From Escherichia coli (GTDB lineage: Bacteria > Pseudomonadota > Gammaproteobacteria > Enterobacterales > Enterobacteriaceae), in assembly GCF_024223415.1 (NCBI RefSeq), contig NZ_CP100500.1: DNA of 64,000 nt. The stretch is one strand, 5' to 3'. The stretch's first letter is position 1. Each line of letters starts with the position of its first letter. The position numbers were made by a program, and so were the translations under genes. The notes beneath the pieces are model-generated. The model saw only the letters and a list, made by a program, of their open reading frames with translations. It had not been told where the DNA came from and ran no database searches. Positions 35,298 to 46,935 of this stretch are shown here, piece by piece.

Positions 35298-36989
35298 ATG
35301 AAAACGCTGCTGATTATTGACGCTAATCTCGGTCAGGCACGCGCCTATATGGCGAAGACCCTGCTGGGCGCGGCGGCGCGAAAAGCAAAACTGGAAATCA
35401 TCGACAATCCGAACGACGCAGAAATGGCGATTGTTCTCGGTGATTCCATCCCGAATGACAGCGCGCTGAACGGTAAAAATGTCTGGCTGGGCGATATTTC
35501 CCGGGCAGTTGCGCACCCTGAGCTGTTCCTGAGTGAAGCCAAAGGCCATGCGAAACCTTACACTGCGCCGGTCGCTGCGACAGCACCGGTTGCCGCCAGC
35601 GGTCCGAAACGCGTAGTTGCGGTGACTGCTTGCCCGACTGGCGTAGCACACACCTTTATGGCGGCTGAAGCCATTGAAACCGAAGCGAAAAAACGTGGCT
35701 GGTGGGTGAAAGTTGAAACCTGTGGTTCTGTTGGTGCGGGTAATGCAATCACCCCCGAAGAAGTAGCCGCAGCGGATCTGGTGATTGTGGCGGCAGATAT
35801 CGAAGTGGATCTGGCGAAATTTGCTGGTAAACCGATGTATCGTACCTCTACTGGTCTGGCGCTGAAGAAAACCGCGCAGGAACTGGATAAAGCGGTTGCT
35901 GAAGCAACGCCGTATGAACCGGCGGGCAAAGCTCAAACGGCGACCTCTGAAGGTAAGAAAGAGAGTGCAGGCGCATACCGTCACTTGCTGACGGGTGTCT
36001 CTTACATGCTGCCGATGGTCGTTGCAGGTGGTCTGTGTATCGCGCTTTCTTTTGCTTTTGGTATCGAAGCGTTTAAAGAGCCGGGTACGTTGGCAGCGGC
36101 GCTGATGCAGATTGGTGGTGGTTCAGCCTTTGCGCTGATGGTGCCGGTACTGGCAGGTTATATTGCCTTCTCCATTGCCGATCGTCCGGGTCTCACGCCG
36201 GGTCTGATTGGCGGTATGCTGGCGGTCAGCACCGGTTCTGGCTTCATTGGCGGTATTATTGCGGGCTTCCTGGCTGGTTACATTGCGAAGTTAATCAGTA
36301 CGCAACTGAAACTGCCACAGAGTATGGAGGCGCTGAAACCGATCCTGATCATTCCGCTAATTTCCAGTCTGGTGGTCGGTCTGGCGATGATCTACCTGAT
36401 CGGTAAACCGGTTGCTGGCATTCTCGAAGGGTTGACTCACTGGCTGCAGACCATGGGGACTGCGAATGCGGTTCTGCTGGGGGCGATCCTCGGTGGCATG
36501 ATGTGTACTGACATGGGCGGTCCGGTAAATAAAGCAGCGTACGCATTCGGTGTGGGTCTGCTGAGTACTCAAACCTATGGCCCGATGGCGGCGATTATGG
36601 CGGCAGGTATGGTGCCACCGCTGGCAATGGGTCTGGCAACAATGGTGGCGCGTCGCAAATTTGACAAAGCGCAGCAGGAAGGTGGCAAAGCCGCTCTGGT
36701 TCTTGGTCTGTGCTTTATTTCGGAAGGTGCAATTCCGTTTGCTGCTCGTGATCCGATGCGTGTGCTGCCGTGCTGTATCGTGGGTGGGGCGCTGACTGGC
36801 GCAATCTCAATGGCGATTGGTGCGAAACTGATGGCACCGCACGGTGGTCTGTTTGTTCTGCTGATCCCTGGCGCTATTACGCCGGTACTGGGTTACCTGG
36901 TAGCAATTATTGCCGGTACGCTGGTGGCGGGTTTGGCCTATGCCTTCCTGAAACGTCCGGAAGTGGACGCAGTAGCGAAAGCCGCGTAA
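35298..36989 (+). CDS. fruA: Fructose PTS EIIB'BC component FruA (563 aa)
   Basis: Translated ORF recognised as E. coli FruA. Confidence 0.9.
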   Translation: MKTLLIIDANLGQARAYMAKTLLGAAARKAKLEIIDNPNDAEMAIVLGDSIPNDSALNGKNVWLGDISRAVAHPELFLSEAKGHAKPYTAPVAATAPVAASGPKRVVAVTACPTGVAHTFMAAEAIETEAKKRGWWVKVETCGSVGAGNAITPEEVAAADLVIVAADIEVDLAKFAGKPMYRTSTGLALKKTAQELDKAVAEATPYEPAGKAQTATSEGKKESAGAYRHLLTGVSYMLPMVVAGGLCIALSFAFGIEAFKEPGTLAAALMQIGGGSAFALMVPVLAGYIAFSIADRPGLTPGLIGGMLAVSTGSGFIGGIIAGFLAGYIAKLISTQLKLPQSMEALKPILIIPLISSLVVGLAMIYLIGKPVAGILEGLTHWLQTMGTANAVLLGAILGGMMCTDMGGPVNKAAYAFGVGLLSTQTYGPMAAIMAAGMVPPLAMGLATMVARRKFDKAQQEGGKAALVLGLCFISEGAIPFAARDPMRVLPCCIVGGALTGAISMAIGAKLMAPHGGLFVLLIPGAITPVLGYLVAIIAGTLVAGLAYAFLKRPEVDAVAKAA

Positions 36990-36999
36990 TAAAAGGTGT

Positions 37000-37032
37000 G
37001 TTACAGGGCAGAAATTTACTGCCCTGTATCAT
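37000..37032 (+). terminator. Hairpin downstream of fruA (probable terminator)
   Basis: Stem cagggcag/ctgccctg directly after the fruA stop; weak T tract. Confidence 0.45.
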
Positions 37033-37412
37033 TGGATGAGCGCAAAGAGAATGACCGGTTTGTGAATGTAATTTTATGAATTTAAATGGTTTTATCTTTC
37101 AGTAGAAACCTGAAACGTTCATCAAACACTAAGGTTATTTCCTCAAGGGCAGATTCTTTTCTGCCCTTTTTTAGTGTTCATGTTCTGTGCATCCCGTCAC
37201 AAATTCCTCGCTTTTGTAATTCAGGCATTTAATCGCATTTTGTGAGCCTGCTCAAATCTGCCCGCTTTGCCTCTCTGGCGGCAATTTACTTTACGTAAAA
37301 CATGCATACTATGAGCACATGTTTAAATATGAACACATGTTTAAACCGTCTTTGCAGTATCTATATCCTTGTGGATTGACAGGGTTGGTAATTTTTTACC
37401 AGAGGACGTGCT

Positions 37413-38354
37413 ATGCGCGAAAAGGATTATGTCGTAATTATAGGTTCGGCGAATATTGATGTCGCCGGATATTCACATGAATCATTAAATTATGCGGATT
37501 CAAATCCAGGTAAAATAAAATTTACACCTGGTGGAGTAGGGCGAAATATTGCACAAAACCTGGCGTTGCTGGGTAACAAAGCCTGGCTACTGAGCGCAGT
37601 AGGTAGTGATTTTTATGGTCAATCGCTGCTAACGCAAACCAATCAATCTGGCGTTTATGTCGATAAATGCCTGATTGTGCTGGGAGAAAATACGTCGAGT
37701 TATTTATCATTACTCGATAATACCGGTGAAATGCTGGTTGCTATAAATGACATGAATATTAGCAACGCTATTACAGCTGAATATCTCGCACAACACCGTG
37801 AATTTATTCAGAGGGCAAAGGTCATTGTCGCGGACTGTAATATCAGTGAAGAGGCACTGGCATGGATTCTGGATAATGCCGCCAACGTACCCGTATTTGT
37901 CGATCCGGTTTCAGCGTGGAAATGTGTCAAAGTGCACGACCGTCTAAATCAGATCCACACTCTGAAGCCAAACCGCCTTGAAGCGGAAACCCTGAGTGGG
38001 ATAGCGCTGTCAGGGCGTGAAGATGTGGCAAAGGTTGCCGCCTGGTTCCATCAACATGGCCTGAACCGACTGGTATTGAGCATGGGCGGCGATGGCGTTT
38101 ATTACAGTGAAATCAGCGGTGAAAGTGGCTGGTCTGCCTCGATCAAAACCAATGTTATTAATGTTACCGGAGCGGGCGATGCCATGATGGCGGGACTTGC
38201 TTCGTGTTGGGTAGACGGAATGCCGTTTGCCGAATCTGTTCGTTTCGCACAGGGATGTTCGTCAATGGCGCTCTCCTGTGAATACACCAATAACCCCGAT
38301 TTATCGATTGCCAACGTTATATCGTTAGTGGAGAACGCAGAATGTCTGAATTAA
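37413..38354 (+). CDS. psuK: Pseudouridine kinase PsuK/YeiC (313 aa)
   Basis: Translated ORF recognised as E. coli YeiC; PfkB-family kinase motifs. Confidence 0.9.
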   Translation: MREKDYVVIIGSANIDVAGYSHESLNYADSNPGKIKFTPGGVGRNIAQNLALLGNKAWLLSAVGSDFYGQSLLTQTNQSGVYVDKCLIVLGENTSSYLSLLDNTGEMLVAINDMNISNAITAEYLAQHREFIQRAKVIVADCNISEEALAWILDNAANVPVFVDPVSAWKCVKVHDRLNQIHTLKPNRLEAETLSGIALSGREDVAKVAAWFHQHGLNRLVLSMGGDGVYYSEISGESGWSASIKTNVINVTGAGDAMMAGLASCWVDGMPFAESVRFAQGCSSMALSCEYTNNPDLSIANVISLVENAECLN

Positions 38355-39280
38355 AAATTTCCCCTGAATTATTACAAATTTCCCCGGAAGTGCAGGACGC
38401 TTTAAAAAACAAAAAACCGGTTGTGGCGCTGGAATCGACCATTATTTCTCACGGGATGCCGTTCCCACAAAATGCCCAGACCGCAATTGAAGTTGAAGAA
38501 ACTATTCGTAAACAGGGCGCAGTACCTGCCACTATCGCCATTATTGGTGGCGTGATGAAAGTGGGTTTAAGCAAAGATGAAATTGAATTACTGGGTCGTG
38601 AAGGGCATAACGTGACCAAAGTTAGTCGTCGCGATTTACCTTTTGTTGTTGCCGCCGGAAAAAATGGCGCAACCACTGTGGCTTCAACGATGATTATTGC
38701 GGCGCTTGCCGGAATTAAAGTATTTGCCACCGGGGGAATTGGTGGTGTTCATCGCGGGGCGGAACATACCTTCGATATTTCTGCCGATTTGCAAGAACTG
38801 GCAAATACTAATGTCACCGTTGTTTGTGCCGGGGCGAAATCTATTCTCGATTTAGGATTAACCACTGAGTATTTAGAAACCTTCGGTGTGCCGTTAATTG
38901 GCTATCAGACTAAAGCGCTGCCTGCGTTTTTCTGCCGCACCAGCCCATTTGAAGTCAGTATTCGCCTTGATAGTGCCACGGAAATCGCTCGTGCAATGGC
39001 AGTGAAATGGCAAACCGGTTTGAACGGTGGTCTGGTAGTGGCGAATCCGATCCCGGAACAGTTTGCGATGCCGGAGGAATCTATCAATGCAGCCATAGAT
39101 CAAGCCGTCGCCGAAGCCGAAGAGCAGGGCGTTATTGGTAAAGAAAGTACACCGTTCCTGCTGGCGCGTGTTGCTGAACTGACCGGCGGTGACAGCCTGA
39201 AATCCAACATCCAACTGGTGTTCAACAACGCCATTCTGGCGAGCGAAATTGCCAAAGAATACCAGCGTCTCGCGGGTTAA
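38342..39280 (+). CDS. psuG: Pseudouridine-5'-phosphate glycosidase PsuG/YeiN (312 aa)
   Basis: Translated ORF recognised as E. coli YeiN. Confidence 0.9.
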   Translation: MSELKISPELLQISPEVQDALKNKKPVVALESTIISHGMPFPQNAQTAIEVEETIRKQGAVPATIAIIGGVMKVGLSKDEIELLGREGHNVTKVSRRDLPFVVAAGKNGATTVASTMIIAALAGIKVFATGGIGGVHRGAEHTFDISADLQELANTNVTVVCAGAKSILDLGLTTEYLETFGVPLIGYQTKALPAFFCRTSPFEVSIRLDSATEIARAMAVKWQTGLNGGLVVANPIPEQFAMPEESINAAIDQAVAEAEEQGVIGKESTPFLLARVAELTGGDSLKSNIQLVFNNAILASEIAKEYQRLAG

Positions 39281-39373
39281 TTTCTGACGGGCAGAAAGCC
39301 GTCGCCCGTACTGATCATACATACCGAAACCTGGCGCTGACGCCGGGTTTACTGGCATGAAGGGAAAATCATT

Positions 39374-40624
39374 ATGGATATAATGAGAAGTGTTGTGGGG
39401 ATGGTGGTGTTACTGGCAATAGCATTTCTGTTGTCGGTAAATAAAAAGAGCATCAGTTTGCGCACGGTTGGAGCCGCACTGCTGCTGCAAATCGCTATTG
39501 GTGGCATCATGCTCTATTTTCCGCCGGGAAAATGGGCAGTAGAACAGGCGGCATTAGGCGTTCATAAAGTGATGTCTTACAGTGATGCCGGTAGCGCCTT
39601 CATTTTTGGTTCGCTGGTCGGGCCGAAAATGGATGTCTTGTTCGACGGTGCAGGCTTTATCTTCGCCTTTCGCGTACTTCCGGCGATTATCTTCGTCACT
39701 GCGCTTATCAGCCTGCTGTACTACATTGGCGTAATGGGACTGCTAATTCGTATTCTTGGCAGCATTTTCCAGAAAGCTCTTAACATCAGCAAAATCGAGT
39801 CTTTTGTTGCGGTTACCACTATTTTCCTCGGGCAGAACGAGATCCCGGCGATCGTTAAACCGTTTATCGATCGCATGAATCGCAACGAGCTGTTTACCGC
39901 AATTTGTAGCGGGATGGCATCCATTGCCGGTTCGATGATGATTGGTTACGCCGGAATGGGCGTGCCGATTGACTACCTGTTAGCGGCATCGCTGATGGCT
40001 ATCCCAGGCGGTATTTTGTTTGCACGTATTCTTAGCCCAGCAACCGAGCCTTCGCAGGTCACGTTTGAAAATCTGTCGTTCAGCGAAATGCCGCCAAAAA
40101 GCTTTATCGAAGCAGCGGCGAGCGGTGCGATGACCGGGCTGAAAATCGCCGCCGGTGTGGCGACGGTGGTCATGGCGTTTGTCGCAATTATTGCGCTGAT
40201 TAATGGCATTATTGGCGGAATTGGCGGCTGGTTTGGTTTTGCCAATGCCTCTCTGGAAAGTATTTTTGGCTATGTGCTGGCACCGCTGGCGTGGATCATG
40301 GGTGTGGACTGGAGTGATGCCAACCTTGCGGGTAGCCTGATTGGGCAGAAACTGGCGATTAACGAATTCGTCGCTTACCTGAGTTTCTCCCCATACCTGC
40401 AAACGGGCGGCACGCTGGAAGTGAAAACCATTGCGATTATCTCCTTTGCGCTTTGTGGTTTTGCTAACTTTGGTTCTATCGGTGTTGTCGTTGGGGCATT
40501 TTCGGCTATTTCGCCAAAACGTGCTCCGGAAATCGCCCAGCTTGGTTTACGGGCGCTGGCAGCAGCAACGCTTTCCAACCTGATGAGCGCGACCATTGCC
40601 GGGTTCTTTATTGGTTTAGCTTGA
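39374..40624 (+). CDS. psuT: NupC-family nucleoside transporter PsuT/YeiM (416 aa)
   Basis: Translated ORF recognised as E. coli YeiM; close paralog of nupX further right. Confidence 0.9.
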   Translation: MDIMRSVVGMVVLLAIAFLLSVNKKSISLRTVGAALLLQIAIGGIMLYFPPGKWAVEQAALGVHKVMSYSDAGSAFIFGSLVGPKMDVLFDGAGFIFAFRVLPAIIFVTALISLLYYIGVMGLLIRILGSIFQKALNISKIESFVAVTTIFLGQNEIPAIVKPFIDRMNRNELFTAICSGMASIAGSMMIGYAGMGVPIDYLLAASLMAIPGGILFARILSPATEPSQVTFENLSFSEMPPKSFIEAAASGAMTGLKIAAGVATVVMAFVAIIALINGIIGGIGGWFGFANASLESIFGYVLAPLAWIMGVDWSDANLAGSLIGQKLAINEFVAYLSFSPYLQTGGTLEVKTIAIISFALCGFANFGSIGVVVGAFSAISPKRAPEIAQLGLRALAAATLSNLMSATIAGFFIGLA

Positions 40625-40691
40625 GTTTCATTGCCGGATGTACTCGCTTATTAAGCGTTGCATCCGGCAATCGCGCTATTGCAAATAATTT

Positions 40692-41351
40692 TTACTGCAT
40701 CATCCCGGAGAATTTATTCTCCGGGTCCATCTCCAGCGCCAGTCCTGACAACTGCTTTCTGTTTTTAATGAGATATCCTTTCTTGCTTTTAATTAATAAA
40801 CCGTCGTGAATGAATTGCGCGAGAACATATAAAAGATGTCGATAAGAAACGCCTAAATACTCTGCCGCTTGCGTATGCTTTTCGTGATAAAGATCACCTT
40901 CTTGTGAGAGTAATATAAATGCTGCCAGGCGATTCACTAACGGAAATGATTGATTCTGAGTTAAAGAAACAATATTACGATAATTTTTATGACTTAAGGT
41001 GACGCAAAGTTTTCGTAAAAATAGGGTGTCGTTTAATAACAGCGGACGGTAATGTTTCATAGGGAGCGCAAGGCACCAACACTCTTCAATCGCCTGTACT
41101 GCACGTGGTTCATGGTCTTTATCGATTAACTCAATCTCGCCAATAAAACAGGGGGCGGCAAAGAAATCGATCAGCGACACGCAACCATTAGCTAGCGTGG
41201 CGTAAAGCCTGGCGCGGCCTCGCGTCAGGTAAAACAGCCAGGACGGCTGTTGCCCTTCCTGCACAATGTAGTCACGCGCTAAAAAATGAAACAGCCGCGT
41301 ATCGGCTGAAACATCCGTTAAAAAGCAATCCTTAAACGCGGATTCACTCAT
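40692..41351 (-). CDS. yeiL: Crp/Fnr-family regulator YeiL (about 219 aa)
   Basis: Translated ORF recognised as E. coli YeiL; C-terminal HTH. Confidence 0.85.
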
Positions 41352-41519
41352 CAATTGCTGCTTAAGATCATTATTGTGGATTTCTTTCACGATGTTTATC
41401 CGCTATGAGATTTCTCATATTTAGCATACGTACGCTGTTGTTAAGATTCAATCATCGGCCCGGTCGAATTTTCTTTGCTGTAGAAAAAATAACGCAACTG
41501 GAAACAGAGGAAATAAACA

Positions 41520-42461
41520 ATGGAAAAGAGAAAAATTATTCTGGATTGTGATCCGGGTCATGATGATGCTATTGCAATGATGATGGCAGCGAAACATCCG
41601 GCAATAGATTTATTAGGCATCACTATTGTAGCGGGTAATCAGACGCTTGATAAAACATTAATTAATGGCCTGAATGTTTGCCAGAAACTGGAGATTAATG
41701 TTCCGGTTTATGCGGGGATGCCGCAACCCATTATGCGTCAACAAATCGTTGCCGATAATATTCACGGTGAAACCGGACTGGATGGCCCGGTATTCGAGCC
41801 GCTGACCCGCCAGGCAGAAAGTACCCACGCGGTGAAATACATCATTGATACCCTGATGGCAAGCGATGGCGATATCACTCTGGTGCCGGTTGGTCCGTTG
41901 TCAAATATCGCGGTGGCAATGCGTATGCAACCCGCAATCCTGCCCAAAATCCGTGAAATTGTGCTAATGGGCGGCGCTTACGGTACAGGCAACTTCACGC
42001 CATCTGCCGAGTTCAACATCTTTGCTGACCCGGAAGCCGCACGCGTGGTGTTCACCTCCGGCGTTCCATTAGTGATGATGGGCCTCGATCTTACCAACCA
42101 GACCGTTTGCACCCCGGACGTAATTGCTCGGATGGAAAGGGCAGGCGGCCCTGCCGGAGAGCTATTCAGCGACATCATGAACTTCACTCTCAAAACGCAG
42201 TTCGAAAACTACGGCCTGGCTGGCGGCCCGGTGCACGACGCCACCTGCATCGGTTATCTGATTAACCCTGATGGCATTAAAACCCAGGAGATGTACGTCG
42301 AAGTGGACGTCAACAGTGGCCCTTGTTATGGGCGTACCGTCTGCGACGAGCTGGGCGTTCTTGGCAAGCCCGCTAATACCAAAGTCGGCATCACTATTGA
42401 TACCGACTGGTTCTGGGGCTTAGTCGAAGAGTGCGTGCGCGGCTACATCAAAACCCATTAA
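41520..42461 (+). CDS. rihB: Pyrimidine-specific ribonucleoside hydrolase RihB/YeiK (313 aa)
   Basis: N-terminal DCDPGHDDA nucleoside-hydrolase motif; recognised as E. coli RihB. Confidence 0.9.
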
Positions 42462-42560
42462 GTGTTGATAACAAGCCGGGCCGGTATCGCAAGATGCAGG
42501 CCTGGCTATTTCTGAGGGGCAGAAAGCCGTCGCCCAATATGACATGAAGAGATAATAACT

Positions 42561-43808
42561 ATGGATGTCATGAGAAGTGTTCTGGGAATGGTGGTATTGC
42601 TGACGATTGCGTTTTTACTGTCAGTAAACAAGAAGAAGATCAGCCTGCGTACCGTTGGCGCGGCGTTAGTGTTACAGGTCGTGATCGGCGGGATTATGCT
42701 TTGGTTACCGCCAGGGCGTTGGGTCGCTGAAAAAGTCGCTTTTGGCGTGCATAAAGTGATGGCGTACAGCGATGCAGGTAGCGCATTTATCTTCGGTTCG
42801 CTGGTCGGGCCGAAAATGGACACGCTGTTTGATGGCGCAGGATTTATCTTTGGTTTCAGGGTGTTACCGGCAATTATCTTCGTCACCGCGCTGGTGAGTA
42901 TTCTCTACTACATCGGTGTGATGGGGATCTTAATTCGCATTCTCGGCGGTATCTTCCAGAAAGCGTTAAATATCAGCAAGATCGAGTCATTCGTCGCGGT
43001 CACTACCATTTTCCTCGGGCAAAACGAAATTCCGGCAATCGTCAAACCCTTTATCGATCGGCTGAATCGCAATGAGTTATTTACAGCGATTTGTAGTGGC
43101 ATGGCCTCAATTGCCGGTTCGACAATGATTGGTTACGCCGCGCTGGGCGTGCCTGTGGAATATCTGCTGGCGGCATCATTAATGGCGATCCCCGGCGGGA
43201 TCTTGTTTGCCCGCCTGTTAAGCCCGGCTACGGAATCTTCGCAGGTTTCCTTTAATAACCTCTCTTTCACCGAAACACCGCCAAAAAGCATTATTGAAGC
43301 GGCAGCGACAGGGGCGATGACCGGGCTGAAAATCGCTGCGGGTGTGGCAACAGTGGTGATGGCATTTGTTGCCATCATTGCGTTAATTAACGGTATTATC
43401 GGCGGCGTTGGCGGCTGGTTTGGTTTTGAACATGCCTCGCTGGAGTCCATTTTAGGTTATCTGCTGGCCCCACTGGCGTGGGTAATGGGTGTTGACTGGA
43501 CTGATGCGAATCTTGCCGGGAGTTTGATTGGACAGAAACTGGCAATAAATGAATTTGTCGCTTATCTCAATTTCTCACCCTATCTGCAAACGGCTGGCAC
43601 TCTGGATGCTAAAACCGTGGCGATTATTTCCTTCGCGTTGTGCGGTTTCGCTAACTTTGGTTCTATCGGGGTGGTGGGGGCGTTTTCTGCGGTTGCGCCA
43701 CACCGTGCGCCGGAAATCGCCCAACTTGGTTTACGCGCGCTGGCGGCGGCGACACTTTCTAATCTGATGAGTGCCACCATTGCCGGGTTCTTTATTGGTT
43801 TAGCGTAG
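42561..43808 (+). CDS. nupX: NupC-family nucleoside permease NupX/YeiJ (415 aa)
   Basis: Translated ORF recognised as E. coli NupX. Confidence 0.9.
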   Translation: MDVMRSVLGMVVLLTIAFLLSVNKKKISLRTVGAALVLQVVIGGIMLWLPPGRWVAEKVAFGVHKVMAYSDAGSAFIFGSLVGPKMDTLFDGAGFIFGFRVLPAIIFVTALVSILYYIGVMGILIRILGGIFQKALNISKIESFVAVTTIFLGQNEIPAIVKPFIDRLNRNELFTAICSGMASIAGSTMIGYAALGVPVEYLLAASLMAIPGGILFARLLSPATESSQVSFNNLSFTETPPKSIIEAAATGAMTGLKIAAGVATVVMAFVAIIALINGIIGGVGGWFGFEHASLESILGYLLAPLAWVMGVDWTDANLAGSLIGQKLAINEFVAYLNFSPYLQTAGTLDAKTVAIISFALCGFANFGSIGVVGAFSAVAPHRAPEIAQLGLRALAAATLSNLMSATIAGFFIGLA

Positions 43809-43863
43809 TGTGCGATTTATGAGCCGGATTAGATGCGGTCAAGCGTCGAATCCGGCAACATTG

Positions 43864-44952
43864 TTACACCATTGGCACTAATGACAGCGCGTTATCGGCA
43901 GACAGGGTAGGGTTGTTTAAGCTGCCGCTGGCGCGTGAAATTGCCGCGCAGGCCATCGCAAAACGGGCGCTGTCACGGAAATTGTTTCCCTCCAGAAAGC
44001 TATATACCAGACCCGCCATAAAACCATCGTCAGCACCAAAACTGTCTACCGTCGTATGCGCTGGCACAGTCAGCAAAAATTGTTCACCATCCTTTTCGCT
44101 GCAATAAACTGACTCATCGGGCAAATAAACAAACAGTTGCTGAACACCTTGCTGATGCAATGCATTCACTGCGGCATTACGGTCAGCATCGCTGGTGATC
44201 GCCTGTCCCCATAAAATTTCCAGCTCCGGTAAAGTGGGTTTCAGGGTGTGAACATGCGCCAGCCAGTGTTTGATTTTGCCCGCTTTGAATTCTGAAACGG
44301 TATCGACAAACACCGGGATCTCACCAGCGAGGGTAAAGACCCATTCCAGCGCCTCGGCTGTCAGGTTGCAATCAGCCAGTACCACGCCCGCATGACGAAG
44401 TAAATCGCGCGACCCGTTCAATAATTGCGGCGATAACTGTTCCAGCAGATGGGTATCGTTAATCGCCAGCACGGTTTGATCGTCTCGATTGGCAATTGCC
44501 AGATACGTCGATGTGCTTTGACCATGTAAACGAACGCAGCCGGAGACATTCACGCCGGCGCGGCGCGTTTCTTCCAGGAGCATTTCGCCATAAAAGTCAT
44601 CGCCAATCACTGAAAGCAAATGGACGTCACGGCCTAACAGCGCCAGATTGTGGGCGATGTTGCGTCCCACGCCGCCCGCCGAGCAATGAATCGTACCGGG
44701 ATGAGAAGCCGCTTGCGGGTAACGGATATCCGCCATCCCGCGAATATCCATATTGATTGTCCCCACCACTACGCAGTATTCCTGCTCGGTGAGAATGTAA
44801 CCTTTGCCTTTAATCCGCCCTTTGCGCATTAAATCCATAATATGCGCCGCAACGCGCGAACGACTGATTTGCAGCATGTCCGCAATTTCGTTCTGCTGAA
44901 TCAGCGGGTTACGCCGTAAAATTGCAAGGATCTCCTTTTCCCGGTTATTCAT
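43864..44952 (-). CDS. yeiI: Putative sugar kinase with N-terminal HTH, YeiI (362 aa)
   Basis: Translated ORF recognised as E. coli YeiI; PfkB-like domain paralogous to psuK. Confidence 0.85.
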   Translation of the reverse strand: MNNREKEILAILRRNPLIQQNEIADMLQISRSRVAAHIMDLMRKGRIKGKGYILTEQEYCVVVGTINMDIRGMADIRYPQAASHPGTIHCSAGGVGRNIAHNLALLGRDVHLLSVIGDDFYGEMLLEETRRAGVNVSGCVRLHGQSTSTYLAIANRDDQTVLAINDTHLLEQLSPQLLNGSRDLLRHAGVVLADCNLTAEALEWVFTLAGEIPVFVDTVSEFKAGKIKHWLAHVHTLKPTLPELEILWGQAITSDADRNAAVNALHQQGVQQLFVYLPDESVYCSEKDGEQFLLTVPAHTTVDSFGADDGFMAGLVYSFLEGNNFRDSARFAMACAAISRASGSLNNPTLSADNALSLVPMV

Positions 44953-44954
44953 CT

Positions 44955-45812
44955 TCAGGCTACCGCTTTTTCAGTTTGTTGCGCTTTCAGCCAGGCGATC
45001 TCTTCTGCCCAGATATCCGGGTTGATGGTTTCGAGGATCAGCGGAATGCCGTCGAAACGGTCGTCCTGCATGATCCAGCGGAACGCATCATGACCGATAT
45101 TGCCTTCACCGAGGCTATGATGGCGGTCAACGCGGCTGCCAAAGGTGCTTTTCGCATCGTTAAGGTGCATCCCGCGCAGATACTTAAAGCCGACAATACG
45201 GGCAAAATCCGCGAACGTTTTCTCGCATTCGGCTGGAGTACGCAAATCATACCCGGCAGCGAAAGCATGGCAGGTATCAATGCAGACGCCTACACGGGAT
45301 TTATCTTCCACGCCGTCGATAATCGCCGCGAGATGTTCGAATTTAAACCCTAAGTTACTGCCCTGACCGGCGGTGTTTTCAATCACCGCGGTCACACCTT
45401 GAGTTTTATCCAGCGCAATGTTGATGGATTCGGCAATACGCGCAAGGCAATCCTCTTCTGAAATCTGCATCAGATGGCTGCCAGGGTGGAAATTGAGCAA
45501 AGAAAGCCCCAGTTGTTCGCAACGCTGCATTTCATCTATAAAGGCATCGCGCGATTTTTCCAGAGCTTCAGCGACCGGATGTCCGAGGTTAATCAGATAG
45601 CTGTCGTGGGGAAGAATTTGCGCCGATGTGTAGTGATATTTTTCACAGGCGGCTTTGAATTCATCGATGGTTTGCGTCGTGAGCGGTGCGGCACGCCACT
45701 GACGTTGGTTTTTGGTGAACAAGGCAAACGCGGTTGCGTCGATTTCGGCGGCGCGAATTGCGGCATTTGCCAGACCGCCAGCAGCACTAACGTGCGCTCC
45801 AATGTATTTCAT
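44955..45812 (-). CDS. nfo: Endonuclease IV (285 aa)
   Basis: Translated ORF recognised as E. coli Nfo. Confidence 0.9.
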
Positions 45813-45885
45813 GCGAGGACTCCTGTTAAACCCGCTGGAGGAAAACGGTAATGATAGCGGGTTAACAGGAGCAAGATGTAGTGGT

Positions 45886-46935
45886 TTATGCGATGACGCT
45901 TTGAATCACATAGTTAATCGCACCACCACCAACAATCAGCCAGGCAAACAGTACCAGTGCCATCAGCAGAGGTTTCGCCCCGGCTTTTTTCAGCGCGCTG
46001 ACGTGAGTGGTCAGACCCAGCGCCGCCATCGCCATTGCCAGCAGGAAGGTATCCAGCGTTACCAGCATGTTCACCACGCTCTGCGGTAACAGGTGGAACG
46101 AGTTAAAGATGGCAACTACGATGAACAAGATGGCAAACCACGGAATAGTGATTTTGCTTTTCTCGCCGCTGTTCGCCCCAGACAGCTGTTTAACACGCGC
46201 CGCCAGCAGGATGAGGAACGGAGCCAGCATCATCACGCGCAGCATTTTGGAAATAACTGCTGCGTTTTCCGCATCCGGGCTGATGGCATGACCTGCCGCC
46301 ACCACCTGCGCCACTTCGTGCACAGTAGAACCAATGTAGATACCGAAAGTTTCCGGACTAAACCATTGAGACATCAGCGGATATATCGCCGGGTAGAGGA
46401 AAATCGCGACGGTCCCGAAGATAACAACGGTTGCAACAGCCACGGTTACTTTACTGGCTTCCGCTTTCACTACCGGCTCAGTCGCCAGTACCGCGGCAGC
46501 ACCACAGATACTGCTACCGGCACCGATCAACCAGCTGGTGTGCTTATCCAGACCAAACACTTTCTGCCCCAGGAAGCAAGCCAGCAGGAAGGTACTGGAC
46601 AGCGTCAACACGTCAATGATGATCCCACTGATACCGACATCGGCAATTTGCGAGAACGTCAGACGGAAGCCATAAAGAATGATACCCAGACGTAATAAAT
46701 ATTGCTTGGCAAACAGCACACCACCGTCACAGCTTTTCCAGATGTGCGGATAGATGGTGTTGCCTAAAACCATCCCCAACAAGATTGCGAGGGTGAGGGC
46801 ACTAAACCCGGCACCCGCAACCGCGGGAATGGAACCACCCCACAGGGCGACCCCGGTGATAACTGCACTCAGGGCTAACCCCGGAATAAAATGCCACAGT
46901 GTACGATGTTGTTTCTGTAAGGTGATATTCGTCAT
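45886..46935 (-). CDS. yeiH: UPF0324 inner-membrane protein YeiH (349 aa)
   Basis: Translated ORF recognised as E. coli YeiH; polytopic membrane protein. Confidence 0.85.

Follow-up and report, generated by a model that had tools for sequence, protein, structure and literature searches.

The region between fruA and nfo in Escherichia coli raises the question of whether its two neighbouring nucleoside gene sets are copies of one module. The window, the whole 64-kb stretch of E. coli DNA that was analysed, matches several RefSeq E. coli genomes at 100% identity and carries the gene order fruA-psuK-psuG-psuT-yeiL-rihB-nupX-yeiI-nfo. Genes, order and orientation are the same as in E. coli K-12 psuKGT/yeiL/rihB-nupX/yeiI (b2160-b2166). 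Gene names were taken from NCBIfam profiles, Pfam domains and RefSeq annotation, as follows.

37413..38354, + strand: psuK, pseudouridine kinase; PfkB without HTH (NF007355, 703.9 bits, cutoff 540; Pfam PfkB at residues 5-295)
38342..39280, + strand: psuG, pseudouridine-5'-phosphate glycosidase (Pfam Indigoidine_A, E = 1e-132; RefSeq annotation)
39374..40624, + strand: psuT, CNT/NupC-family putative pseudouridine transporter (TIGR00804, 516 bits, cutoff 442)
40692..41390, - strand: yeiL, CRP/FNR-type regulator (NF007707, 415 bits; Pfam cNMP_binding and HTH_Crp_2)
41520..42461, + strand: rihB, pyrimidine ribonucleoside hydrolase (NF007417, 727.8 bits; Pfam IU_nuc_hydro)
42561..43808, + strand: nupX, CNT/NupC-family transporter (TIGR00804, 492 bits; 88% identity to PsuT)
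43864..44952, - strand: yeiI, winged-HTH and PfkB protein (NF007416, 807 bits)

PsuT contains the Pfam domains Nucleos_tra2_N, Gate and Nucleos_tra2_C, and NupX is 415 residues long in this strain versus 416 in K-12. YeiI combines HTH_24 (residues 1-48) with PfkB (58-348) and reaches only 256 bits against the pseudouridine-kinase model (cutoff 540). The yeiL gene is divergent from rihB. Profiles and RefSeq annotation agree with the gene names psuK-psuG-psuT and rihB-nupX-yeiI given by an earlier sequence-only reading of this DNA, but rihB-nupX-yeiI, which it called a module, does not make up one transcription unit, since yeiI is encoded on the other strand and converges with nupX.

That reading described psuT and nupX as highly similar NupC-family transporters and both kinases as PfkB proteins, and both descriptions are correct: the transporters share 88% protein and 78% DNA identity, and PsuK and YeiI align over 306 residues at 38% identity. 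Published work already describes PsuT and NupX as paralogues and PsuK and YeiI as related (PMC11241209, PMC9061257). With dS of ~0.9-1.4, dN/dS of ~0.06-0.09 and 47% identity at 4-fold sites, psuT and nupX are true, fairly old paralogues. Across genera each of the two has its own orthologous group, and the Hafnia/Serratia transporter falls outside the two clades. Pairwise alignment of the two halves by sensitive blastn confined DNA homology to a 1.39-kb unit of 28-nt leader, transporter CDS and 3' hairpin, and found none outside the transporter block, the leader and a short 3' flank (40653-40670 versus 43841-43858). The edges of the unit are the following.

39280..39307, + strand: shared 28-nt stretch, psuT side; 27/28 identical to the nupX leader, 5' edge of the duplicated unit, holds the 19-mer GGGCAGAAAGCCGTCGCCC
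42508..42535, + strand: shared 28-nt stretch, nupX side; 27/28 identical to the psuT leader, holds the 19-mer at 42517-42535
40631..40670, + strand: 3' hairpin after psuT, TTGCCGGATG...CATCCGGCAA; 3' edge of the duplicated unit
43823..43856, + strand: 3' hairpin after nupX, GCCGGATT...AATCCGGC; homologous to the psuT 3' flank

The best psuK/yeiI DNA match is background (25 nt, E = 0.047), and PsuG (Indigoidine_A fold) and RihB (IU_nuc_hydro) are unrelated. The old segmental duplication claimed earlier holds for psuT and nupX with their common leader, but not for the whole three-gene module; as judged from these alignments, the transporter gene alone was duplicated.

It is improbable that a whole kinase-glycosidase-transporter operon was copied, after which rihB took the place of the glycosidase in one copy and the kinase there became yeiI by inversion and divergence. 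Homologues do fill two of the three functional slots, and among the PfkB proteins of E. coli none is closer to PsuK than YeiI, or to YeiI than PsuK (profile cross-scores; PMC9061257). However, the absence of DNA homology outside the transporter unit, the unrelated PsuG and RihB, and the discordance between 88% protein identity for transporters and 38% for kinases all speak against such an event, as does synteny. In ~60 loci compared, yeiI is linked to psuKGT in other genera, not to rihB-nupX. The order fruA-psuKGT-yeiI-nfo without rihB-nupX occurs in E. albertii, several Citrobacter, Leclercia, Klebsiella and Enterobacter asburiae, and yeiI is absent where psuKGT is absent and only rihB-nupX occurs; Buttiauxella has fruA-yeiL-rihB-nupX-nfo. 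The yeiL/rihB-nupX cassette is variably placed (3' of psuT, 5' of psuK, alone or elsewhere), and yeiL constantly adjoins rihB-nupX in other genera; by this synteny, yeiL/rihB-nupX is the movable cassette. In a neighbour-joining tree of kinase domains, PsuK groups with the HTH-kinase heading the Hafnia/Serratia psu operon and YeiI branches outside, whereas the transporters PsuT and NupX are sisters within the Hafnia/Serratia split, so the kinases appear to have separated before the transporters did. This placement of YeiI could be a long-branch effect, which would favour whole-operon copying, because YeiI evolves somewhat faster (mean identity to outgroup representatives 0.33, versus 0.37 for PsuK).

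We favour a joint explanation, to which we assign a probability of roughly 0.6: duplication of the transporter unit, a cassette inside a pseudouridine unit, a leader hairpin (H1) acting as sense-strand RNA, and homogenisation of ~28 nt. The region would be a pseudouridine unit with a separate yeiL/rihB-nupX cassette inserted, not two copies of one module. The pseudouridine unit would comprise psuK, psuG and psuT behind a promoter and operator, together with yeiI, the HTH-kinase paralogue adjoining nfo, and the sole segment common by duplication would be the 1.39-kb transporter unit of H1-initiated leader, CNT CDS and 3' hairpin. The literature searched gave no report of the duplication limits, the yeiI-psuKGT linkage or the leader hairpin.

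Two candidate control elements precede psuK.

37285..37312, + strand: predicted psuK promoter; -35 TTTACT at 37285-37290, 16-nt spacer, -10 TACTAT at 37307-37312
37316..37346, no strand assigned: operator-like repeat CACATGTTTAAATATGAACACATGTTTAAAC, directly 3' of the predicted -10, with inverted and direct repeats

We infer the promoter from conservation: both TTTACT and the A/T hexamer after it are kept 5' of psuK from E. coli to Klebsiella, and also 5' of the Hafnia/Serratia HTH-kinase gene. In a consensus scan it scores 8/12, below the 9/12 threshold. The operator-like core, AACACATGTT-N6-7-AACATGTG(C/T)T, is kept in all psuK upstream regions examined, appears as AACGCATGTTTAAAAACAAACAAGTGT in Hafnia/Serratia, and is the sole such site near these operons in the 64-kb window. 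YeiI, which has an extra N-terminal winged HTH (residues 1-48) relative to PsuK, is predicted to be a regulator of psu and to belong with psuKGT. A psuK mutant is unable to use pseudouridine, and therefore YeiI is not a redundant kinase (PMC12506659). The bifunctional HTH-enzyme regulators BirA and NadR offer an analogy for YeiI and the Hafnia-type kinase, in which an N-terminal winged HTH is likewise fused to a small-molecule kinase fold and the gene lies at or beside the operon carrying the conserved operator. Unlike in BirA and NadR, DNA binding and kinase activity of YeiI are putative.

The leader common to psuT and nupX, also proposed earlier, is borne out: GGGCAGAAAGCCGTCGCCC occurs exactly twice in the 64-kb window, once 5' of each gene (39289-39307 and 42517-42535, both +), ending 66 nt (psuT) and 25 nt (nupX) before the start codons. 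No further site was found in the window at up to three mismatches, where 0.03 would be expected by chance. The locus had been dismissed as backbone biology, which is fair for the genes, but the leader is an unannotated conserved structured element that was overlooked; annotation of the K-12-type locus leaves both spacers, psuG-psuT and rihB-nupX, without any regulatory or RNA feature. The predicted RNA elements are as follows.

39287..39309, + strand: H1 of psuT; stem 39287-39292/39304-39309, 11-nt loop AGAAAGCCGUC at 39293-39303
42515..42537, + strand: H1 of nupX (CM E = 3.1e-7)
39310..39326, + strand: conserved single-stranded G-poor tail, consensus AUAUCA-R-ACAUACC-R-AAA from alignments
39327..39350, + strand: hairpin H2, AAACCUGGCG-CUGA-CGCCGGGUUU; weak terminator-like, with 3 U only
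42474..42507, + strand: strong hairpin after rihB, AGCCGGGCC...GGCCUGGCU followed by UAUUUCU; terminator-like by fold

H1 is a hairpin of a 6-bp stem and an 11-nt loop, and begins 6-12 nt 3' of the psuG stop codon in all psuT leaders. The psuT copy has a CM E-value of 2.8e-9 and folds alone at -10 kcal/mol; in the nupX copy the second pair from the stem base is G.A in this strain and U-A in K-12. RNAalifold predicts the H1 stem by itself, while the E. coli single-sequence MFE fold prefers another local pairing, GACGG/CCGUC, over H1. H2 is predicted in the consensus fold of 11 leaders, where it is almost invariant, and in the single-sequence fold; it was not called in a terminator scan. A mutual-information scan found no pairing partner for the tail, and no covariation-supported pseudoknot or alternative pairing of H1 with the tail, H2 or the ribosome-binding site was found.

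Across the aligned leaders, H1 is conserved and covaries. Covariation was counted first on 23 distinct sequences and later on 37, the larger set covering at least eight genera. Over the two counts 94-95% of stem cells are paired (95% in the 37 sequences; slid controls, 33-54%) and three or four pairs covary, and 0/500 shuffles reached the observed values in a test that is inflated by related sequences. Because the inner four pairs hardly vary (their 148 cells include a single U.G), the covariation rests on three outer pairs (37 sequences: AU/GC 17/11; CG/UA/UG 26/4/4; GC/AU 32/5). G.U pairs are tolerated on the sense strand in six cells. The core is invariant in eight genera, and the loop is conserved asymmetrically, not with two-fold symmetry, with G13, G17, C18, G20 and U21 nearly invariant. 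Between genera, leader identity is 65-83%, with 4-fold sites at saturation (44-48%) in the same genera. Recent horizontal transfer of one allele, considered as a source of H1 conservation, is excluded by this 44-48% 4-fold identity. H1 accompanies the transporter whether psuG or rihB lies upstream, and with or without adjacent yeiI or yeiL. CM matches in 485 kb fall at leader sites only, E. coli genomes have a median of two H1 places and at most three, and H1 matches no Rfam family even at E<=5.

It is very improbable that the shared 19/28-mer is a functionless relic, whether a part of the old duplication that has yet to diverge or the trace of a recent gene conversion. At 8/8 upstream and 4/4 free loop positions, which differ in other nupX leaders, the two E. 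coli copies are identical, and recent homogenisation is suggested because these positions are free to vary between genera; exact runs of 20-29 nt also occur in the psuT/nupX CDS, of whose windows only 8/1218 reach 27/28 identity. Against a relic stand the retention of the hairpin in at least eight genera and both paralogues despite saturated 4-fold sites, the preservation of its stem by compensatory changes, and the lack of conservation between psuT and nupX in the flanks 5' of H1. In the favoured explanation, the 27/28 identity of the E. coli leaders would reflect purifying selection on H1 together with short, Escherichia-specific gene conversion of ~28 nt.

H1 is probably a cis-acting RNA element that sets the amount of transporter made. 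It would act as sense-strand RNA within an intercistronic leader or the transporter 5' UTR, with a 6-bp stem maintained by compensatory changes and an asymmetrically conserved loop (G13, G17, C18, G20, U21) that a trans-acting factor or small ligand recognises. Such binding would determine transporter output separately from that of the enzyme genes upstream. This may occur via read-through of H2, or via mRNA stability or processing, in the long, ancestral leader, and via stability or translation in short nupX leaders without H2. H2 is missing from most nupX leaders (K. spallanzanii nupX has it), so one expression platform cannot account for every case. Transcription through the H1 site is argued from operon context and an RpoS-holoenzyme SELEX peak that lies within psuG, 5' of psuT (PMC5493296). 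No 3' ends are reported in the psuG-psuT and rihB-nupX spacers, and the operons were probably silent under the conditions tested.

H1 could instead act as DNA, its GGC-N11-GCC inverted repeat forming an operator or promoter spacer through which a transcription factor controls an internal transporter promoter, but this is unlikely. The strong rihB 3' hairpin, replaced in other genera by one of different sequence at the same place, implies that nupX might need its own promoter within the ~50-95 nt before the ATG, where H1 sits; the SELEX peak within psuG (PMC5493296) and weak -10-like A/T hexamers 3' of H1 in many leaders are also consistent with it. However, these hexamers mostly lack the conserved final T, a promoter scan called none at H1, and neither the psuK nor the rihB promoter has the motif. 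The asymmetric loop conservation does not suit a two-fold site, G.U-type changes are tolerated, and H1 is kept without adjacent yeiI or yeiL. Somewhat less likely again is a passive hairpin with no specific ligand, which would stabilise the psuG/rihB mRNA at its 3' end, stabilise a 5' end or serve as an RNase processing site. Transporter operons often have hairpins between cistrons that give parts of the mRNA different stabilities, which a passive H1 would fit, and its start 6-12 nt after the psuG stop is typical of a 3' stabilising hairpin. Yet a passive hairpin would not need the five nearly invariant loop bases, and nupX leaders retain H1 although rihB has its own hairpin.

Among known RNA elements, preQ1-I (RF00522; a lead only) resembles H1 in its 5-6 bp stem, ~11-nt loop with conserved bases, conserved A/C-rich single-stranded tail and position 5' of a transporter gene, with a terminator-like hairpin next in long leaders. 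Unlike preQ1-I, H1 has no Rfam match at E<=5 and no covariation-supported loop-tail pseudoknot, and its tail is shortened or deleted in several nupX leaders; a ligand is hypothetical. The REP hairpins of malEFG and hisJQMP, which uncouple expression, share with H1 a GC-rich stem and a position between enzyme or binding-protein genes and membrane transporter genes. Unlike these dispersed repeats, H1 occurs at two loci per genome only and its loop is conserved in sequence.

The locus from fruA to nfo contains two transporter genes, psuT and nupX, each preceded by a leader that carries the same hairpin (H1). The following gene map is supported alike by ORFs, NCBIfam, Pfam, and the K-12 annotation:

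fruA, 5' end of the map, before psuK
37413-38354, psuK, PfkB-type kinase
38342-39280, psuG
39374-40624, psuT, transporter
40692-41390, minus strand, yeiL
41520-42461, rihB
42561-43808, nupX, transporter
43864-44952, minus strand, yeiI, winged-HTH and PfkB protein
nfo, last gene of the map, after yeiI

The window is chromosomal E. coli DNA. Its region 37000-45200 is 100% identical to several RefSeq genomes and is found in 5371 of 5426 complete E. coli genomes. The sequence-only reading placed two modules side by side here, psuK-psuG-psuT and rihB-nupX-yeiI; its gene content holds, but rihB-nupX-yeiI is not one operon, as yeiI lies on the opposite strand. The high similarity claimed for the two transporters is confirmed, with proteins 88% identical. 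PsuT and NupX score 516 and 492 bits against TIGR00804 (CNT/NupC family, cutoff 442), and each contains all three of the domains PF01773, PF07670, and PF07662. NupX is 415 aa long in the window and 416 aa in K-12, one codon being deleted within the GSIGVVVGAF segment.

PsuK and YeiI were also correctly read as PfkB-type proteins. They score 232 and 231 bits against PF00294 (PfkB, cutoff 25.8), are 38% identical over the kinase domain, and both retain the GGVGRNIA motif, with a later motif that reads GAGD in PsuK and GADD in YeiI; YeiI has an additional N-terminal winged HTH. Against the pseudouridine kinase equivalog NF007355 (cutoff 540 bits), PsuK scores 703.9 bits and YeiI 256.2 bits, while YeiI scores 807.5 bits against its own equivalog NF007416 (cutoff 561). 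YeiI is therefore not to be filed as a pseudouridine kinase. Its start codon lies 2 nt past the nfo stop codon on the minus strand (44950-44957), so it is probably co-transcribed and translationally coupled with nfo.

Comparison of the two halves by local alignment and sensitive blastn yields three homologous blocks:

39280-39307 and 42508-42535, stretch common to both leaders (28-mer), 27/28 identical
39353-40620 and 42540-43804, 78.4% identical
40653-40670 and 43841-43858, short, within similar hairpins 3' of the stop codons

No homology was found elsewhere between the halves, and DNA similarity between psuK and yeiI is only background. This gives a duplicated unit of ~1.39 kb that consists of the leader, the transporter coding sequence, and the 3' hairpin. 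Its 5' edge is exactly the last base of the psuG stop codon, and the psuT leader is ~41 nt longer than that of nupX, the extra sequence including a second hairpin (H2). An old segmental duplication of whole modules had been proposed, with pairwise alignment as its check. The alignment bears out the transporter block and leader but not the kinases, the modules are not collinear, and PsuG and RihB have unrelated folds. The observation of paralogous transporters thus stands, while its interpretation is partly supported, and the corrected duplication unit is new. The locus is a clean case of a transporter gene that was copied along with its putative cis-regulatory leader and terminator and joined a different catabolic cassette.

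The psuT and nupX coding sequences are 89%, 95%, and 52% identical at codon positions 1, 2, and 3 and 47% identical at four-fold sites, with dN ~0.08 and dS 0.9-1.4. In a protein tree, PsuT and NupX fall into two distinct groups, each spanning several genera, and the Hafnia/Serratia transporter (73-74% identical) falls outside both, which places the transporter duplication before the Escherichia/Citrobacter/Enterobacter/Klebsiella radiation and after the split from Hafnia/Serratia. A duplication of modules would have left both pairs comparably diverged and of the same relative age; the transporters are 88% identical and the kinases 38%. In NJ trees, the source for both datings, the transporter split lies inside the Hafnia/Serratia split and the kinase split outside it. 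That the two splits differ in age, the kinase split being the older, is moderately secure on these trees, and a single segmental duplication therefore does not account for the two pairs together. Homologous REP-like hairpins, GCCGGAT(G/T)...(C/A)ATCCGGC, lie 3' of both transporters between convergent gene pairs (40631-40670 and 43823-43856); K-12 has no REP annotation at these hairpins, and they are probably bidirectional terminators.

Loci were collected from species genomes, contigs encoding selected homologues, and metagenomes (by a start-region pattern) and annotated by tblastn. They fall into five arrangements:

A, fruA-psuK-psuG-psuT-yeiI-nfo-yeiH, rihB-nupX absent: E. albertii, Citrobacter youngae, C. 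werkmanii, Citrobacter sp. FP75, Leclercia, Enterobacter asburiae, Klebsiella michiganensis, many metagenome contigs
B, yeiL/rihB-nupX between psuT and yeiI: E. coli, also Kluyvera, C. freundii, Entomohabitans
C, fruA-yeiL-rihB-nupX-psuK-psuG-psuT: E. hormaechei
D, fruA-yeiL-rihB-nupX-nfo, without psuKGT and without yeiI: Buttiauxella
E, yeiL-rihB-nupX at another site: Superficieibacter, K. spallanzanii

The proposed modules are not co-inherited: yeiI occurs with psuKGT in loci without rihB-nupX, and rihB-nupX occurs with yeiL in loci without yeiI. These arrangements link yeiI to psuKGT and identify yeiL/rihB-nupX as the mobile cassette, which contradicts a rihB-nupX-yeiI module.

In Hafnia, Serratia, and Klebsiella sp. 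BIGb0407, the kinase-psuG-transporter operon opens with a 363-aa HTH+PfkB gene (L008:842-1930, L009:791-, and L010:844- in the fetched loci). Full-length identity of its product is 59% with E. coli PsuK and 51% with YeiI; the HTH parts of this product and YeiI are ~72% identical by our own count. Among 1.84 billion cluster representatives searched, HTH+PfkB, at roughly 360 aa, is the common architecture of the subfamily. In the kinase-domain NJ tree, PsuK clusters with the Hafnia-type HTH-kinase and YeiI branches outside, and YeiI has evolved somewhat faster than PsuK. On the simplest reading of these sequences, PsuK would be an HTH-less derivative of the operon HTH-kinase and YeiI an older paralogue that retained the HTH. 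YeiI is uncharacterised and groups with pseudouridine kinases (PMC9061257). Since a psuK mutant is unable to use pseudouridine (PMC12506659), YeiI is no redundant kinase, which fits a regulatory role.

The fruA-psuK spacer (37285-37346) contains a conserved promoter-like pair, TTTACT and TACTAT separated by 16 nt, followed by an operator-like repeat, CACATGTTTAAATATGAACACATGTTTAAAC. The operator core, AACACATGTT-N6-7-AACATGTGYT, is conserved 5' of psuK from E. coli to Klebsiella, and a similar form precedes the Hafnia/Serratia HTH-kinase gene. The repeat is likely the binding site of the local HTH-PfkB regulator, which in E. coli would be YeiI. Assignment of YeiI and the conserved operator to the pseudouridine unit is new, and together with the psuK promoter/operator and the loss of the PsuK HTH it makes the regulation of pseudouridine catabolism testable.

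The 19-mer GGGCAGAAAGCCGTCGCCC, reported upstream of both transporters and contained in the 28-mer, has exactly two sites, 39289-39307 and 42517-42535; the 64-kb window has no third site at up to 3 mismatches, with 0.03 expected by chance. Both leaders carry H1, which has a 6-bp stem and an 11-nt loop:

39287-39292 / 39304-39309, H1 stem of psuT
42515-42520 / 42532-42537, H1 stem of nupX
39327-39350, H2 of psuT, AAACCUGGCG...CGCCGGGUUU, almost invariant, a weak terminator-like hairpin followed by only three U

H1 recurs in every psuT and nupX leader from Escherichia, Citrobacter, Leclercia, Enterobacter, Klebsiella, Kluyvera, Buttiauxella, Superficieibacter, and Entomohabitans. Standard pairs occupy 94-95% of stem cells (23, then 37 distinct sequences), slid controls pair at only 33-54%, and 0 of 500 shuffles match the observed pairing or covariation. 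Covariation involves the three outer pairs (AU/GC 17/11, CG/UA/UG 26/4/4, GC/AU 32/5), which are the only ones that vary. RNAalifold recovers the stem unaided, and G13-C22, a seventh pair beyond a bulged base, is mostly retained. The loop is nearly invariant at G13, G17, C18, G20, and U21 and free at positions 14-16 and 19. H1 thus shows what is expected of a structured cis-regulatory RNA: compensatory stem changes, conservation beyond the neutral rate, and a fixed position beside one gene family. In the nupX H1, the second pair from the stem base is G.A in the window strain and U-A in K-12.

A covariance model of H1 matches only the leader sites in 485 kb of related loci plus the 64-kb window, with no match in distant CNT loci of Vibrio, Pasteurellaceae, Burkholderia, Hafnia, or Serratia. 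Short-query BLAST, run to look for the further copies that a regulon would show, finds a median of 2 motif places per E. coli genome. Even at E<=5, Rfam 15 matches neither 39280-39373 nor 42508-42560, and across 36500-46000 at the same threshold it gives chance-level matches only, away from the leaders. The hairpin is also absent from the K-12 annotation, and no description was found in the searchable literature on nupX, psuT, yeiL, yeiI, rihB, or riboswitch candidates. The locus had been called backbone rather than novel; this is right for the genes, which belong to known backbone metabolism, but not for the leader hairpin, which is new as a candidate cis-regulatory RNA.

The long leader consists of H1, a G-poor tail (AUAUCA-R-ACAUACC-R-AAA), H2, and the Shine-Dalgarno region, and is 65-83% identical between genera whose four-fold sites are saturated (44-48% identical). 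The complete long form is present at K. spallanzanii nupX and is therefore ancestral to both paralogues. H2 has been lost from most nupX leaders by deletion between two CCTGG repeats, and the K-12/window allele has lost a further 12 nt of the tail. Hafnia and Serratia have a different long hairpin at this position. At least two nupX leader alleles exist in E. coli: the window/K-12 form, GCCCAAUAUGACAUG (window 42536-42560), is 12 nt shorter than the SCPM-O-B-8794 form, GCCCAUAACGGGAUCAGACCUGACAUG, which resembles that of other genera (compared at L094 1647-1700, minus strand, and L001 6164-6201).

Selection on H1 explains the conserved positions of the 27/28 identity, a level reached by only 8 of 1218 28-nt windows of the coding sequence; neutral DNA of this age is expected to be near saturation. 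The E. coli psuT and nupX copies also agree at 8 positions upstream of the stem and 4 free loop positions, where nupX leaders of other genera differ, and synonymous identity is not raised in the first 40 codons. This pattern points to a short tract of ~28 nt that was homogenised between the psuT and nupX leaders within the Escherichia lineage. The transporter start codons lie within predicted local hairpins, psuT UCAUUAUggauAUAAUGA (39369-39386), conserved in many genera, and E. coli nupX AUGACAU...AUGUCAU (42537-42573), which could restrict translation initiation.

H1 is conserved and covarying and accompanies the transporter gene in two operon contexts, whether or not yeiI or yeiL is adjacent. 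In mRNA, it probably serves as a site recognised by a factor or ligand and sets transporter expression apart from that of the upstream enzyme genes, through H2 read-through, mRNA stability or processing, or translation. A farther-reaching reading, to which we give roughly one chance in four, is that the ~90-nt leader (H1, G-poor tail, and H2) is an undescribed Enterobacteriaceae RNA that would switch nucleoside or pseudouridine transporter synthesis via a pyrimidine-salvage metabolite or a dedicated RNA-binding protein, with YeiI as a kinase-derived, pseudouridine-sensing repressor of psuKGT at the operator. If this is right, E. coli itself would harbour a new class of riboswitch-like or protein-dependent attenuator.

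A role of H1 at the DNA level, as an operator or promoter, is the main rival. It is plausible for nupX, where a terminator-like hairpin lies 3' of rihB. The loop pattern lacks two-fold symmetry and G.U pairs are tolerated, which favours a sense-strand RNA over a palindromic DNA operator. A scan for consensus promoters and terminators called nothing at H1 or H2; by eye, a sigma-54 promoter is rejected on GG/GC spacing, and an RfaH ops-like element lacks the downstream GTG pause element. An RpoS-holoenzyme SELEX peak within psuG (PMC5493296) raises the possibility of an internal promoter that also feeds psuT.

As to a switching RNA, the loop and tail are conserved, and H2 is absent from many nupX leaders. 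H2 is followed only by UUU(A/C/U), short of the at least 5 U within 8 nt that accompany the GC-rich stem of an intrinsic terminator. No covarying long-range pair, conserved alternative pairing, or pseudoknot was found in the leader. A mutual-information scan of 31 long leaders gave no convincing pair between the H1 loop and the tail, H2, or ribosome-binding region, and clade structure dominated the signal. GGU:ACC and GUC:GAC pairings, examined manually, failed on covariation. An antiterminator between the H1 3' arm and the H2 5' arm would be just 4 bp long in E. coli and is not kept in Leclercia, and an E. coli-specific alternative fold, GACGG/CCGUC with psuG codons, has no conserved counterpart in other genera. 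An upstream leader peptide is unlikely, as conservation of ATGAAG is limited to its overlap with the Shine-Dalgarno region and Leclercia and Klebsiella lack it.

The psuT and nupX operons are poorly expressed, and the one 3' end that the Term-seq supplement lists here is antisense and lies within nupX. NupX is an inefficient transporter of uridine and cytidine; for PsuT, transport of uridine, cytidine, or xanthosine was not seen (PMC11241209). Deletion of psuT raises pseudouridine titres (PMC13090712). PsuT is a target in industrial pseudouridine production. The leader hairpin belongs to two poorly understood nucleoside transporters, may account for the difficult laboratory expression of rihB-nupX and psuT, and is directly testable by reporter fusions and binding assays.

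Two hairpins 3' of fruA (36999-37031 and 37145-37168) contain GGGCAGA, as does H1, and the second is a textbook terminator. The H1 covariance model gives no match to either, so the likeness is probably due to chance. Across the 5,426 E. coli genomes, psuK-psuG (37413-39280) shows unusually deep within-species allele divergence: 1193 records are 80-90% identical to the window (about 85%), 4059 are 95-99% identical, and only 38 reach at least 99%, which suggests old or introgressed haplotypes at the locus.
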